Origin: Shigella phage SHFML-26
Length of the DNA: 64,000 nt
Sequence record: KX130862
Strand: one strand, 5' to 3'
Shown: positions 17,945 to 61,491 of the stretch, in pieces
Layout: each line of letters starts with the position of its first letter
How positions within the stretch are numbered: the first letter of the stretch is position 1
Position numbers and translations under genes: made by a program
Notes under the pieces: model-generated
Seen by the model: only the letters and a program-made list of their open reading frames with translations
The model's database searches: none
Told to the model about the DNA's origin: nothing

Positions 17945-18145
17945 TCATTTTGAATGCTCTATAATTAATTTTAAGGCTTCTTTACTGACAAAAATTTCAT
18001 CAAGACCTTCTTCTACACCCCAATCAACTACACGAAGCTGATTAGATAAGAGCTCGTATGTGAGCTCCTTGTCATAATTTTTAAATAGCTGGTCAATACG
18101 TTTCTTGTGGGCTTTCTTAAGCTGGCGTTTATTTAAACGAGCCAT
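17945..18145 (-). CDS. hypothetical protein
   Basis: ORF track. Confidence 0.4.
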   Translation of the reverse strand: MARLNKRQLKKAHKKRIDQLFKNYDKELTYELLSNQLRVVDWGVEEGLDEIFVSKEALKLIIEHSK

Positions 18146-18663
18146 TAATAACCTCGGTCTTGACGAGCGAAGTTTTCAGCATTTTTCAGATAATAAAGTT
18201 TAAAGATTTCTTCAGCCGTAAGACCGAGGCCTTGGAACATGTTCAGAACGAAATGAAGAATATCAATCATTTCGAATTTAATTTCCAACTGGTCTTGTGG
18301 AGACAAATCAGTAATCAGAGTTTCACGTCGTTCACCATGTTGAGCTTTCCAAGGCTTCCATACAGCAGATGCATCTTTTTCACCATTGCTCATACCACCA
18401 AGAGAAGTCAATAGTTCGCGGAATTCATCATCAATATAATCTTTCTGATTACGCAGCCAATCAACAACTTCACCCGCAGTAGCCAAATCATCAGGATGAC
18501 GGTTATATTCAGGTTTATCTTTAGCTAAACGAACCTGCAGAGATTTCTGCATATCAAGCATAACTTGCAACGGGTCTTTTTCATCACCGAGAATATCCCA
18601 GTATTCATTTTGAGCTTTATCAGCGCCTTCAATCAGTTGTGAACATTCATTAAAGTATGCCAT
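18145..18663 (-). CDS. 56: dCTP pyrophosphatase (gene 56, MazG-like)
   Basis: Start moved to ATG at 18661-18663 (MAYFNECSQL) behind AAGGAAA; 172 aa. Confidence 0.8.
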   Translation of the reverse strand: MAYFNECSQLIEGADKAQNEYWDILGDEKDPLQVMLDMQKSLQVRLAKDKPEYNRHPDDLATAGEVVDWLRNQKDYIDDEFRELLTSLGGMSNGEKDASAVWKPWKAQHGERRETLITDLSPQDQLEIKFEMIDILHFVLNMFQGLGLTAEEIFKLYYLKNAENFARQDRGY

Positions 18664-18734
18664 TATTTTTCCTTTCAATTCATGGGTTAGTAGATTAATT
18701 ATACAATAAATATATAAAGCAATAAGGAGGATAT

Positions 18735-18935
18735 ATGGTACAAAAATTAATGGCACTTGTTAATGCCATAAAAGGTAATAAAAAACGTATAGCTTTTACT
18801 ATTTCTGCTATGGTAGGAATTTTACTCTGGAATTTTGTTTTATCACCAATTGCTATTGCTCATGGTGTTAATATTCCAGTAATTACTCTTGATACATTCG
18901 TAGATTTAGCATTTGCTTTAGTTGGGTTAATTTAA
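18735..18935 (+). CDS. small hydrophobic membrane protein (66 aa)
   Basis: Only convincing plus-strand ORF; AGGAGG SD 6 nt upstream of ATG; lies between genes 56 and 61. Confidence 0.4.
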   Translation: MVQKLMALVNAIKGNKKRIAFTISAMVGILLWNFVLSPIAIAHGVNIPVITLDTFVDLAFALVGLI

Positions 18936-26630: not shown

Positions 26631-27011
26631 TCACTTAGTCAAATTTTTTACGCATGAATTATAAGAATTCACTACATACTCCATCGGAGCATTTTTACCA
26701 GTACGCCATTGGTAATTATTAGCCCAATTAGCCCAAAGTTCGGCACAGTAGTTTTCAATTTTTTCTTCGCGTGTAATTACATCTGAATTACGATACGCTT
26801 GAGCAGATTCATCTGGACGAATAGCTTCGTCAAAATTCGCCTGCATTTGTTCTACTGTCTGTTTTGGAGCCTCTTTATAACACTTAACATTAGGATTATA
26901 AAATTTGCTTGAACAATTTACAATTTTTCCTACATCAGACTGATTTACTACCGGTCCTTGAGCTACACAACCAGTAAGACCTAATGCAATAACCAAAATA
27001 GCGATTTTCAT
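26631..27011 (-). CDS. lipoprotein (imm.1 position)
   Basis: Start moved to MKIAILVIALGLTGC; lipobox; early promoter and GGAG SD. Confidence 0.5.
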   Translation of the reverse strand: MKIAILVIALGLTGCVAQGPVVNQSDVGKIVNCSSKFYNPNVKCYKEAPKQTVEQMQANFDEAIRPDESAQAYRNSDVITREEKIENYCAELWANWANNYQWRTGKNAPMEYVVNSYNSCVKNLTK

Positions 27012-27017
27012 TTTACT

Positions 27018-27054
27018 CTCCAAATCCGTATCAGTTGATAGTTGTATAGTACCA
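27018..27054 (-). repeat. conserved promoter-leader cassette (copy 2)
   Basis: Identical 37-mer to 421-457. Confidence 0.6.
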
Positions 27055-27075
27055 TGGAAGAACAGGGATGTAAAC
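27046..27075 (-). promoter_or_regulatory. T4-type early promoter upstream of imm.1-position lipoprotein gene
   Basis: GTTTACA ... TACTAT. Confidence 0.5.
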
Positions 27076-27161
27076 CGTTTTAGTTGAAAAATTTTTAAAT
27101 TGAATCCAAAGGGTCCAGAATCATCTGTTTTTCATAAGTATAGATTTATATTACTTGTATG

Positions 27162-27186
27162 AAAAAGGGACCCGGAGGTCCCTAGA
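27162..27186 (-). terminator. intrinsic terminator after gene 43
   Basis: GGGACC-UCCG-GGUCCC then UUUUUCAU. Confidence 0.6.
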
Positions 27187-27195
27187 TTTATTCTA

Positions 27196-29895
27196 TCAGC
27201 CAAACAGGAAGTCTAACGAAGCTTTTTCTTCATAGTCCATACCTGCCGATTCACACATACCTGCAAGCGGCTTAACAAACGATTTTTGGAACAAAGTTGA
27301 GTAGTCAATCCAAGATAGTACGTCAGAACGAATTTCTTTTGGAAGTTCTGTACCTGATGGCCAAGCAATGCACTTGTCACCAAATGGATTTCCTTCACGT
27401 AATGGAAGAACCATTACTTTATTTCCATCCAAAATTGGAGCTACACCTAAACCACTAACAGCTCGACGATAAGTTAGCACACCACGAATATGGAATGGGC
27501 ATTTAAATCCTGGCCAACCTTTATCATCATATTTCGCTATATCGTTCGCAGTTTTTACTTCAGCAATAACTTTATAGTCAAGTTGACGATATTCTTTCTC
27601 GAAGTTCTTGTAGTATTCTTGGACAGACTCTTCACCTTCCTGAAGAATACGACGAATACTTTCTTCGAGAGCTTCTTGCACCGCTTTTGGTGTTGAACTC
27701 TGCTGAGTTTCCATACCCATGATTTTTAGATGCGGTTCGGCAAATCGCTTATCTTCCATATCATAAACGTTCAGAGCATAACGTTTTTTCGCTTTCCAAA
27801 ATCCACCAACACCCTTTGAACCAAGCGGAGGGCAAGAAATAGCTTCACGGTCCATATGCATCAGATGCTCGCGGTTATTCATATAATCACATAACTCACG
27901 ATATGCAACATCAATCATAGGTTCCATCTTTTTCTTACCAAACTGATTCATGAATTCAACTAAATCATTTTGTTCTTTAAAGCGGTCAAGACCTACTTTT
28001 TCAATTACTTTATCTACACAAACATATACCGAATCAGTATCACCTGCTGCGATGAAATCTTCACCATTAGTTCCACATACTTTATTCAGATATTCATTAA
28101 TTTTGCGAGCAATCCATTGAATACCGACTTGACCGAAAATTGTGATAGCAGTAGCATTTCGCAAATCATAGTAGCGGAAATGAATATTACCAAGAGCACC
28201 ATAAAGACTGTTAATAAGAATTTTACGGTTCAACTGATTTGTGTTAGCAAGTGTAGCAGCTTTTTCACATTCTTCAATCAGACTGTTAAGAACAGATTCG
28301 GTGTAATTCGATAATTCGTTTAAGAAATCATCATTGAACTTAACATATCGTTCAACTTCCGGTTTAGTTGAACAGGACCCTGCGCCTTTCATAATAATCT
28401 TTTTAATAGCTTCGGCATTCATTTCTTCAGCGAACATTTTCTTTTTCCAATCTTTACGCTGGAAAAATACTTTAGCGATTTCCTTTGGAATGATACCTTC
28501 TTGATGCTTATCATACATCCATCCATTCGGAGAACAAGAATATTCATCACTCGGTTTAGGAGCTGTTCCTGCGATATATTCATGAATTGGATGAACTTTA
28601 AACTGCCCACGAATAGTCTCAGGACTAATGTTAACCTGACGAATAATGCTCGGATACAGAGACGTCAAGTCAAAACTCATAATATATCGACGAGCAATTG
28701 GTTTAGGTTCAAATACAAATGCACCCGGAAAACTCTGTTTAACGTGCGAACCTTGTTGAGGAATAACCTTATGTTCACCTTTCAATGAGTTAAAAATAAT
28801 AGCATCCCAAGTTTTAATAGGACTCATTACACCAGAAAAAGGCATTTTAGCATAATAAGACATACTTAAAACTAGATCGATAAACCCGCGAATTTTATCA
28901 ATTGCTTGAACTGATTCTACGTCAATGATGTTATAACTAATGTATCGTTGATGATTAGTCTCACGAAGTTTATTAATAGGACCGTCGTATGGTAATTTAC
29001 CTTTTTTGGTTTCATGTTGAGCAACTGATTCCAAAGAGAATGACGGCAAATTAGTAAATGCGAATTTCTTATACAAATCTAAATAATCAAGAATAGATAC
29101 GCCATCAATAGAATAAATTTCTTTGCTACCGTACATATTTTGAATTAGTTTAGATTTTACCCGACCGATTGGAGAGAAACGTTTCATACTGCGTTCACCT
29201 AGAATCATTTTAACGCGATTCATAATATATGGAACGTCAAACCCCTCAATATTCCAACCAGTAAAAATAGCAGGTCGTTTCTGTTCCCAGAGATTGATAT
29301 ATTCCATGAGCATATCACGCTCATTATCGAATGGCATATAAATTACTCGGTCAAGAATTTCTTGAGGAACTTCATCACCACCTTCACAGTCAAGCTTAGC
29401 AGCTAACTTTGCATCCCATTTTGATACTGAACCGTACATTGAATTCAAAAGGTCGAAAACATAAAAACGATCATCAATTGAATCGTAATGAGTGATAGCA
29501 TCAATTTCATATTCAGCTTTCATTGGGTCAGGAAATTTATCACCAGTAACCTCAATGTCACAGTTAGCTACACGAACAAATTTTCGGTCATAAACAATTT
29601 CTGAACCATACGTATCACTGATATAAGCGAGTTTAAAATCGTTCATACCGAGAGCTTCGAGACCGATGTCTTCCATTCGTTTCATCCAATCTCGAGCATA
29701 TTTCATTGATGGTAAATTTTTGAGGTAGCGCTAGTTTTTACCATAGATGTCTTTGTACTTTGACTCTTCCTTACAATGCCTAAACATAGTTGGAAGATAT
29801 TCTACTTCACGAGTACGTTCCTTTCCGTTTTCATCAATATAACGTTCAACAATGTTATTTCCGACTGTTTCAATAGAGATATAAAATTCTTTCAT
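27196..29895 (-). CDS. 43: DNA polymerase (gene 43, family B), interrupted by in-frame TAG at 29731..29733 (codon 55); longest ORF 27196..29706
   Basis: ATG at 29893-29895 ([14 protein letters not shown]...); exo and pol motifs (FDIE, YGDTDS); translational operator hairpin upstream. Confidence 0.85.
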
Positions 29896-29973: not shown

Positions 29974-30195
29974 TTAAATTAGTACTATTTGTCGGTGAAA
30001 AATTGTCATTCCATCTGCATTAATTGACTTAACGACCGCAGTAAAGTGTTTTTGTTCTGGGTGAATTAATTTTTGAAATTCTACCTGAAATTTTAGTTGA
30101 AGGTTTTCTGGTAAATCGAAAAGTGTTTCTGTTGCAGAAAGATTATATTTTTCTTTAAGAGACGCCATGTATTCTTGTGGAGTTATAGCAGTCAT
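29974..30195 (-). CDS. hypothetical protein (73 aa) between regA remnant and gene 43
   Basis: ATG at 30193-30195, 1 nt after upstream TAA; ends just before terminator hairpin. Confidence 0.45.
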   Translation of the reverse strand: MTAITPQEYMASLKEKYNLSATETLFDLPENLQLKFQVEFQKLIHPEQKHFTAVVKSINADGMTIFHRQIVLI

Positions 30196-30196
30196 A

Positions 30197-30976
30197 TTAA
30201 TTACCAATCGTATATTTAGGAACGAGTTTCCATTCATGCTTTTGTTTAAAAGAAATAACTCGGAAGTTATTAGTTAAATCTTTCATAAAAGTTCTTTGAC
30301 CAGGAACGATTTCAATCAGTCCCCAATCTTCTAATAGCCATGCAATCGAATCACGACGAACTTCATCTTCTTCTGTCATTTCAACTTGGCGACCATCCAT
30401 ACGAAGCATTTCTTTAAAATGAACGATATAGTGCTTGCAGATTTCAGTCAATCGACGAATCATCTGCTTCATCATTTCAATTTTATCTTCATCGGTCGGT
30501 TGACCGAACGTAATAACTCGGCAGCGTGACTGAAGTGGTTTAATAATACCATCAATATTATTAGCAGTAATAATAATACTGCAGTTTGAACTATAAGCTT
30601 CCATAAAGGAACGAAGATGTCGCTGAGACTCTGCTAACCCTGAGCGGTCAAATTCATCAATAACGATTACTTTTTGACGACCATCAAATGAAGCTGCACT
30701 AGCAAAATTAGTCAAAGGACCACGAACGAAATCAATTTTACAGTCTGATCCATTCACAAACATCATATCAGCATTTACATCATGACACAATGCTTTTGCT
30801 ACAGTTGTTTTACCTGTTCCTGGAGAAGGAGAATGAAGAATAATATGTGGAATTTTACCTTTACTTGTAATAGATTTAAAGGTTTCTTTATCAAAGGCGG
30901 GAAGAATACATTCATCGATAGTAGATGGACGATATTTCTGTTCAAGAATGTGTTCTTTTTCATTTACAGTAATCAT
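30197..30976 (-). CDS. 44: clamp-loader gp44 N-terminal 182 aa fused in frame to RegA C-terminal 77 aa (gene 62 absent)
   Basis: ATG at 30974-30976 behind GAGGA; Walker A GTGKTT, Walker B VIVIDEFD, SRC motif; tail YIVHFKEM...KYTIGN matches RegA C-terminus. Confidence 0.7.
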   Translation of the reverse strand: MITVNEKEHILEQKYRPSTIDECILPAFDKETFKSITSKGKIPHIILHSPSPGTGKTTVAKALCHDVNADMMFVNGSDCKIDFVRGPLTNFASAASFDGRQKVIVIDEFDRSGLAESQRHLRSFMEAYSSNCSIIITANNIDGIIKPLQSRCRVITFGQPTDEDKIEMMKQMIRRLTEICKHYIVHFKEMLRMDGRQVEMTEEDEVRRDSIAWLLEDWGLIEIVPGQRTFMKDLTNNFRVISFKQKHEWKLVPKYTIGN

Positions 30977-31002
30977 AATTTCCTCATTCAAGTTTTAGTG
31001 TA

Positions 31003-31027: not shown

Positions 31028-31714
31028 TTAAAAATCGTGGGTAGAATCAGCTTCAAGAGCTACTACATAATTCGCATGTTCACCTTCAAATTTAGCAGCA
31101 CCTTGTTTACCTTTTGCCCAGAGCAGAAGTTTATAATTTCCTGGTTGCATTTTCATATTTGCCATGTTGATAATGAAATTAAATGTATTTTCACCATCAT
31201 AATCACCAAGAGTCAAAGAATATTTAACACGGGTCAAAGCAGAATCTTCTACTTTATTAAAACCGTTAATTACGATTTTACCTTCTTTTACTGTGATAGC
31301 AATTGTATCAATCTGCAGACCACGAGATACACGCAACAGCTGTTGAAGGTCTTCAGCTTTAATTTCAGTAACAACAGATGCTACCGGGAATGGAATTGGT
31401 TTATTAGGAGCAACTACTGTGCTCGGATCAGCTGCTGGCCAAAAAATTGTTGAACGAGCATCAGCAATTTTAATATTTCCATCTTCTGACTGGGAAATTT
31501 CTGCATCGTCATTAACTAGGGACAGAATACCGAGAAAACCGTTCAAATCGTAAATTGCTACATCAAAATCAATAGTGTCAGAAATATTTGCTTCCGCATA
31601 AGTTGTACCATTAACTGCGCGAGTCATAATAAATTGACCAGATTTAAGCATAATGCCAGAGTTAATAGTAGCGAAATTTTTAAGCAGAGCAGTAGTATCT
31701 TTAGACAGTTTCAT
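31028..31714 (-). CDS. 45: sliding clamp (gene 45)
   Basis: 228 aa, recognised gp45 sequence. Confidence 0.9.
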   Translation of the reverse strand: MKLSKDTTALLKNFATINSGIMLKSGQFIMTRAVNGTTYAEANISDTIDFDVAIYDLNGFLGILSLVNDDAEISQSEDGNIKIADARSTIFWPAADPSTVVAPNKPIPFPVASVVTEIKAEDLQQLLRVSRGLQIDTIAITVKEGKIVINGFNKVEDSALTRVKYSLTLGDYDGENTFNFIINMANMKMQPGNYKLLLWAKGKQGAAKFEGEHANYVVALEADSTHDF

Positions 31715-34110: not shown

Positions 34111-34965
34111 TCACAATGAAGAAAATTCTTTAACTAAAGCCTGTAATGAAGCCTCTATTGGATATCCATTCTTAACTAACATTTTCCTAAACATCACATG
34201 TTTAGGACGATTATATGATATCCACAATTCATACAATTTATCTTTATTATCCCAATGATAGCCTTTTCGTCGAGATGCTATATGAGCTTTTCTAATCTCC
34301 GGATTTTTCCAACTAGCAGCTACTGAATTTGATATAGCTATTTTATATTCAGGTTTTGATAAAGCAGCACGAACAGCCTTTTGGTGTTTAATTTTATTTT
34401 CTTCGTTATTAAACCATTCCCTTGAAGCCATTGAAATTTTTTGTTTTGTTTTAAAATTATTTAATCTTTCTTTGTTATCTTTCCTATTTTTTGCTACTGA
34501 AAAATATTTTAATGCCCTTTCTCTAGCAGCATTTCTATTTTGCGGATTTGAATAATATTGTTGAAGCCTTTTTGATATTGTGTCACTTACATCTTGTTTT
34601 ATAAAACTATATTCAGCAGCTATTAAATCAACTTCGGCTAAAGATAAATTTTTATATGTTTTTCCTGACATCATTCTATTTAAAGCATTTAGCATTTTTC
34701 CATTTTTACCTTTTGCTAATAAGAAATGTGCTTTAAAATGATTAAAATGACTTAAATTAACTAAATTCCATGTAGATTTTAAATATTCAGGAAATATTGA
34801 TTTAGGAAGCACGTGATGTGCTTCCGTTTTACCTGGAGTTTTAACAGTTGAATTCATAGAAATAAAATTAATGTAAGACTTGGCGTCTTCTTCACTCAAC
34901 GCTAATTTTTCAACTAATTCCTTTATTAAAAATTCATCATTAATGTCAAGTTTAAAATTCTTCAC
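34111..34965 (-). CDS. free-standing HNH homing endonuclease
   Basis: HNH-like motif (EAHHVLP...NLVNLSHFNHF); GTG start at 34963-34965 behind AAGGAA; inserted between 46 and 47. Confidence 0.65.
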   Translation of the reverse strand: MKNFKLDINDEFLIKELVEKLALSEEDAKSYINFISMNSTVKTPGKTEAHHVLPKSIFPEYLKSTWNLVNLSHFNHFKAHFLLAKGKNGKMLNALNRMMSGKTYKNLSLAEVDLIAAEYSFIKQDVSDTISKRLQQYYSNPQNRNAARERALKYFSVAKNRKDNKERLNNFKTKQKISMASREWFNNEENKIKHQKAVRAALSKPEYKIAISNSVAASWKNPEIRKAHIASRRKGYHWDNKDKLYELWISYNRPKHVMFRKMLVKNGYPIEASLQALVKEFSSL

Positions 34966-61321: not shown

Positions 61322-61491
61322 TCCGCTCTTATGGATGTTTTTGTGTGTTTTATATTTTCCATCCTTAGAAAATTGTTCCCGAATTGATACGCGTAACGCA
61401 TGTTATCGAGTTGGACATTACTGAAAGTATGCTCGGAGCTATGTGCCATCATTGAAATGGCCAATAGACCAGCGAGTAGTGCTTTTCTCAT
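61309..61491 (-). CDS. small secreted protein
   Basis: ORF track; signal-like N-terminus. Confidence 0.35.
   Translation of the reverse strand: MRKALLAGLLAISMMAHSSEHTFSNVQLDNMRYAYQFGNNFLRMENIKHTKTSIRADWVI

Follow-up and report, generated by a model that had tools for sequence, protein, structure and literature searches.

A gene 44–regA fusion reading frame in Shigella phage SHFML-26: replication-gene deletion or sequence error

Clamp Loader, RegA, and T-Even Phages Lacking Them

The T4 clamp loader is an RFC-like AAA+ complex, a gp44(4):gp62 pentamer held together by its collar, and the sliding clamp, gp45, must be loaded by gp44/62 in order to act. In the Epstein/Edgar collection, the conditional-lethal (amber), DNA-negative T4 mutants of genes 43, 44, and 62 carry single point mutations. 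gp45 also activates late transcription (PMC2988020). For RegA, the primary element of RNA recognition is helix A, with K14, T18, and R21 (PMC3014915; the operator sequence used here, AAAUUAUGAUU, is taken from the same source). In T4del, a phage from the Kuriyan laboratory, the whole of genes 45-44-62 has been removed and a Cas12a site left, and growth occurs only when the proteins are supplied in trans (PMC8121543).

The locus described here lies in a stretch of 64,000 nucleotides of Shigella phage SHFML-26 (sequence record KX130862), referred to as the window. Like T4del, the window represents a T-even genome without a clamp loader. Unlike T4del, it keeps gene 45, the endpoints of the missing segment are inside 44 and regA, and the backbone is not that of T4. 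The T4del design was rejected as a match, as gene 45 is intact and the Cas12a site, TTTACCGGGAGGAAGATATAGCAC, is absent from the window at up to three mismatches. The locus resembles the Epstein/Edgar ambers in that an early TAG in gene 43 is combined with loss of 44/62 function, so that no DNA synthesis is expected. It differs from them in that the amber arises from a base insertion within a cluster of four changes, and in that 44/62 are lost by deletion.

At the protein level, the comparison is with T4 gp44/gp62 (PDB 3U5Z/3U60/3U61, 8UNF) and with T4 RegA (PF01818; 1REG). The fusion shares residues 1–182 with the gp44 of close relatives, including Q118, and RegA residues 46–122, including W81, R91/T92, and F106. 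Set against the T4 clamp loader, it is without most of the lid and the collar, and gene 62 is missing, so that no pentamer would form; set against T4 RegA, it is without the first 45 residues. The locus is a loss-of-function lesion or a sequence error in well-known genes; it is not a new protein or system.

Anatomy of the Fusion Reading Frame

The window is a Tequatrovirus (T4-like) segment extending from the rII/39 region to past tk/vs, and its end-to-end identity with many T-even phages is only 96–98%. The genes of interest are all on the minus strand. Gene 45, the sliding clamp gene (31028..31714), is intact and encodes a protein 100% identical to gp45 of phage e11/2. It is followed by a frame of 259 codons plus a stop (30197..30976), which an earlier note on this DNA had read as an in-frame fusion of gp44(1–182) to RegA(46–122). 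BLASTP against the RB18 proteins bears this out. Fusion residues 1–182 are identical to RB18 gp44 1–182 (182/182), similarity collapses beyond that point, and residues 183–259 are identical to RegA 46–122 (77/77). Thus, the C-terminal 77 residues are RegA and not native gp44 sequence. The arithmetic by which that note had accounted for the missing parts, 182 + 137 = 319 residues for gp44 and 45 + 77 = 122 for RegA, is right. Between regA and gene 43 is an intact ORF 43.1 of the RB18 type (29974..30195; 73 aa, PF25760), which is present in RB18, RB32, and e11/2 and absent from T4.

The gene 44-derived part (30432..30976 in the alignment) comprises codons 1–181 and the CA of codon 182. It encodes the AAA+ N-domain, with Walker A, Walker B, sensor 1, and the SRC motif, and the first ~19 residues of the lid. 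The motifs that the note had listed as retained can all be read in the translation: Walker A at K56, Walker B at D107 and E108, sensor 1 at N139/N140, and SRC at 150–152, along with Q118. Pfam gives an AAA (PF00004) match at fusion residues 46–155. For the lid, PF21328 (Gp44_lid), only profile positions 1–27 of 63 match, with a score of 22.7 bits, below the 27-bit cut-off. The collar, PF21429 (Gp44_C), is found in all full-length homologues and has no Pfam match in the fusion protein.

The regA-derived part (30197..30431) starts with the third base, C, of the Tyr45 codon and continues through codons 46–122 and the stop. The Translat_reg (PF01818) match ends at model position 122, and this segment, 100% identical to RegA 46–122, keeps the C-terminal elements W81, R91/T92, and F106. 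The fusion nevertheless does not amount to a full 122-residue RegA domain; identity begins at RegA residue 46, and helix A is gone. Matches in the PDB divide the protein in the same way, the front half matching T4 gp44 (3u5z, 8unf) and the back half T4 RegA (1reg).

The translation initiation region of gene 44 (30969..30985), GAGGAAATTATGATTAC, is intact and contains the RegA operator. The ATG is preceded by a Shine-Dalgarno sequence, GAGGAAATT, and translation from it gives 259 aa; the ORF listing takes an upstream TTG at 30991 as the start, giving 264 aa. A promoter and terminator scan of the locus returned nothing above the shuffled expectation.

Deletion and Junction

When the DNA is aligned with RB18, the alignment breaks at 30432 and 1115 bp of RB18 are missing from the window, and the same stretch is absent relative to every relative examined. 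The note's estimate of about 1.1 kb lost from the conserved order 45-44-62-regA-43 was therefore close to the exact figure. The lost segment contained most of the gp44 lid and the collar, the entire gene 62, and regA codons 1–45. Gene 62 had been called absent, and indeed tblastn with gp62 (PF16790) against the window gave nothing better than E = 0.4. More broadly, gene 62, gp44 residues 183–319, and RegA residues 1–45 have no match anywhere in the 64-kb window. The distance from gene 45 to gene 43 is 1.13 kb, as had been noted; the ~1.9 kb that was then given as normal is the T4 value, and the normal distance in the lineage that carries 43.1 is ~2.25 kb.

At the junction (30431..30433), the reading frame passes without a shift from the second base of gene 44 codon 182 to the final base of codon 45 in regA. 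In the eight relatives examined (8/8), gp44 His182 is CAT and RegA Tyr45 is TAC. It follows that the junction codon, CAC, which also specifies His, is a hybrid, with CA from gene 44 and C from regA, and the endpoints share one A (30432). The deletion is thus in frame, as had been stated, though without the codon precision that had been implied. The prior chance of an in-frame outcome for an arbitrary join is 1 in 3. No direct or inverted repeats beyond chance 5–6-mers are found at the deletion endpoints. With a single shared nucleotide and no repeats at the endpoints, the pattern looks like non-homologous joining and fits illegitimate recombination, and a misjoin in a k-mer graph is not expected. 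Going by the alignment, then, the fusion frame is tentatively regarded as the by-product of a 1115-bp non-homologous deletion in the 45-44-62-regA-43.1-43 cluster, with the chance that this is so somewhat below even.

Gene 43 Lesion

Gene 43, encoding the DNA polymerase (27196..29895), is interrupted. Its 5′ ORF (29731..29895) has 54 codons, and the remainder (27196..29706) has 836. The lesion (29700..29733) consists of four changes in 33 nt: on the coding strand, an A is inserted at each of 29732, 29726, and 29713, and G is replaced by T at 29700. The coding sequence AAC TGC GCT CCT CAA AAA TTT CCA becomes AAC TAG CGC TAC CTC AAA AAT TTA CCA. Codon 54 is then followed by a TAG (29733..29731), eight codons are altered, and the net gain is 3 nt. 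The lesion is ~0.7 kb (about 700–730 nt) from the deletion junction.

Each of the insertions raises local dyad symmetry. The palindrome TAGCGCTA arises from T-GCGC-T, and TTT-CCAT is turned into TTTACCAT, which complements the upstream ATGGTAAA exactly, so that ATGGTAAA and TTTACCAT form an inverted repeat. The lesion also brings an AGCGCT (AfeI) site along with the amber codon. A search for an ectopic or direct-repeat template for the cluster found nothing beyond chance and no donor in the window.

None of the four changes occurs in any of 578 phage records, among which the closest has 96.0% identity over 101 nt of the lesion, that is, exactly four differences; the pattern is also absent from IMG/VR. 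An exact look-up of the 54-aa gp43 fragment matched genes cut by contig ends. As for suppression of the amber codon by a phage tRNA, the window contains no tRNA genes.

Two further observations concern gene 43 and its surroundings. Four private substitutions are found in 40 nt at 29191–29230 and may have come in together by recombination, as a short patch from a lineage not yet sampled. The segment at 27011–27196 is without the 78-aa ORF that is directly downstream of gene 43 in e11/2 and many relatives; its spacing matches that in another assembly locus (OM135583.1), which makes the missing ORF a case of natural presence/absence variation.

Relatives

The arrangement is confined to this record in everything searched. 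By megablast, ~500 Tequatrovirus phage records covering the region all align in two pieces; that is, they carry the extra 1.1 kb. A further 14 loci, taken from NCBI, ENA, JGI, and Logan assemblies and encoding an HNH-endonuclease or 43.1 protein identical to that of the window, are 96–99% identical to it and have intact 44 (319 aa), 62 (187 aa), regA (122 aa), and 43 (898 aa). The same four genes are likewise intact, with the same lengths, in RB18, e11/2, RB32, RB14, and RB51. Gene 62 adjoins gene 44 in 17 of the 17 loci inspected. Exact look-ups of neighbouring products (truncated gp43, gp46, the HNH ORF, and 43.1) led to no recorded wild-type parent. An exact-protein look-up of the 259-aa fusion gave no record. 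The junction 30-mer did not turn up in exact scans of IMG/VR, JGI metagenomes, and GTDB genomes, and complete genomes of E. coli are without it as well. In a search of 5.8 billion proteins, the best 120 of 634 homologues include none that combines an AAA+ domain with a RegA domain. Thus, a fused 44-regA arrangement, looked for as a possible normal feature of T-even phages, is absent from the ~500 records, the 14 loci, and the best 120 homologues alike. A literature search found no matching 44-62-regA deletion and no matching engineered replication-deficient T4-like phage.

Predicted Consequences

Since the gene 44 ribosome-binding site is retained, the fusion would be translated; the mRNA would keep both this site and the RegA operator, and a 259-aa protein is predicted to be made. 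This protein would have the ATP-binding core and be without most of the lid and the whole collar. With the collar and gp62 missing, the gp44(4):gp62 pentamer would be impossible, and no clamp loading should take place. Without clamp loading, neither processive replication nor gp45-dependent late transcription would be expected. RegA repression would also be lost, because K14, T18, and R21 of the RNA-recognition helix fall in the deleted segment. The fusion protein is accordingly predicted to be non-functional.

Independently of the deletion, the TAG/indel lesion in gene 43 is predicted to remove the polymerase. With the clamp loader lost and gene 43 interrupted, the genome as written would be replication-dead. 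This supports the conclusion already drawn from gene content that the genome is not a self-sufficient wild type, and the gene 43 nonsense/indel lesion strengthens it, for the 64 kb of the ~167-kb genome that is covered. If the deletion is present in the DNA that was sequenced, that DNA would be a replication-defective genome, and its propagation would require the clamp loader, and the polymerase, in trans; a related phage in the same cell, a host that complements or suppresses, or a helper plasmid could provide them.

Real Deletion or Artefact

Our main reading is that the record represents a real genome that is defective or dependent on complementation. Judged from gene content, we put its probability at roughly 0.45. 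A record or assembly artefact, in which the real phage has intact 44, 62, regA, and 43, is the serious contender, and we rate the two about even. The artefact could have come about through a coverage gap or a chimeric read or clone closed without Ns, for example, by abutted contigs, with gene 43 left as an uncorrected low-quality consensus.

The quality of the surrounding sequence bears on both readings. The window contains no ambiguous bases, and ~130 reference ORFs checked in it are intact. A comparison of 6.9 kb with seven relatives gave 27 substitutions private to the window, most of them transitions, and no private indels other than the deletion and the three insertions in gene 43. Overall indel quality is thus high, which speaks for a real deletion, as do the intact ORFs and the lack of Ns. 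The junction itself adds to this case: the joined ends have no overlap and share no k-mer, and a graph assembler alone would not make such a junction. The gene 43 lesion points the same way. Three insertions of the same base, outside homopolymers, that sum to +3, bring back the frame, and generate palindromes would be unusual as errors and are atypical of random base-calling noise.

The case for an artefact starts from the lethality of the lesions, which sit in a genome that in other respects resembles that of a T-even phage in good health and functional until recently. In a phage propagated on an ordinary host, a pair of lethal changes to essential genes would not be expected to become the consensus, nor could a genome of this kind make up most of a normal lysate. 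Both lesions are within 0.75 kb of each other in a 64-kb window, and there is a third private frameshift, in a homopolymer at ~61370; these facts fit local or general quality problems as well. The gene 43 cluster is, moreover, at the distance from the junction at which a Sanger-type read starting from the junction would be expected to degrade. The junction and the fusion are unique in all of the collections searched, and one in three arbitrary joins would keep the frame. Finally, the retained coding parts are at 100% protein identity with no decay, which means that the lesion, if real, must be very recent.

What the locus would mean depends on the reading. Should the deletion be real, the T-even genome described here would be unable to replicate alone, being either a laboratory strain dependent on complementation or a defective variant maintained by co-infection. 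It would also be a natural example of a homology-independent deletion and of a complex mutation that increases symmetry, both in the most thoroughly studied of replisome gene clusters. If the deletion is an artefact, it serves as a warning: automated annotation of the record would produce a split DNA polymerase and an 'AAA+-RegA fusion protein' that does not exist, and the record needs correction. In neither case is a new protein function revealed.

Deliberate engineering of a biocontained or complementation-dependent strain, grown on a helper host, is unlikely. T4del, without 45/44/62 and grown on a helper plasmid, is a precedent (PMC8121543), and here too the knock-outs affect neighbouring genes, so that a single plasmid fragment could complement both, with an amber codon and an AfeI site added to gene 43. 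The endpoints of the deletion are nevertheless mid-gene and inside codons, which disfavours codon-precise design, and no designer would choose to retain half of each of the two genes, 44 and regA. No landing site, marker, or foreign DNA is found in the window, and the backbone is not T4; it belongs to a wild lineage only 96–98% identical to any record. Proteins are 98–100% identical to those of relatives with DNA at ~97%, most differences being synonymous. Given this identity, the synonymous differences, and the lack of anything foreign, the window appears to be from a natural, unsampled lineage and not from T4.

Quite unlikely, too, is a natural cheater, a T-even genome that no longer has a clamp loader, RegA, or polymerase of its own and persists in the wild on the borrowed replisome of co-infecting relatives; this would be a large-phage analogue of defective interfering genomes.

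A functional arrangement, in which 44/62 have moved into the ~100 kb outside the window or the fusion has been selected as a regulator or decoy, is very unlikely: the window does cover only 64 kb of the genome, and the fusion is in frame with its ATP-binding core intact and a native ribosome-binding site, but the gene order of the cluster is invariant in ~500 relatives and the 17 inspected loci, the domain combination is missing from the best 120 of 634 homologues, each half is cut off inside a domain, gene 43 is broken too, relocated 44/62 would still leave the fusion locus as a deletion scar, and recurrence of the fusion in independent lineages was not found in the collections searched.

Other Variation in the Window

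Several differences from relatives lie away from the replication cluster. At 18143–18935, the dam methylase gene and a 186-aa ORF, which are between 56 and 61 in e11/2, are absent; the same apparently holds for phage L14. Gene 56, encoding the dCTPase, is unusually divergent, its protein matching that of e11/2 at 71% identity. An ORF of 284 aa (34111–34965, minus strand) has been inserted between genes 46 and 46.1; it has an H-H...N motif typical of HNH homing endonucleases. Since it is absent from e11/2 and an identical protein is found in 80 collection blocks, this HNH-like ORF is taken as a mobile-element polymorphism.

Two frameshifts are found on the minus strand. In nrdC.9, at ~52826, A5 has become A6 relative to e11/2; a 100% identical variant occurs in ECML-134, and the frameshift is, being common to both, a natural polymorphism. 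At ~61363–61378, a private change of GGGG to GGG frameshifts a conserved 181-aa signal-peptide ORF that adjoins vs (vs.1-like), and the best phage matches to this region (~61370) are 99.1% identical with one gap.
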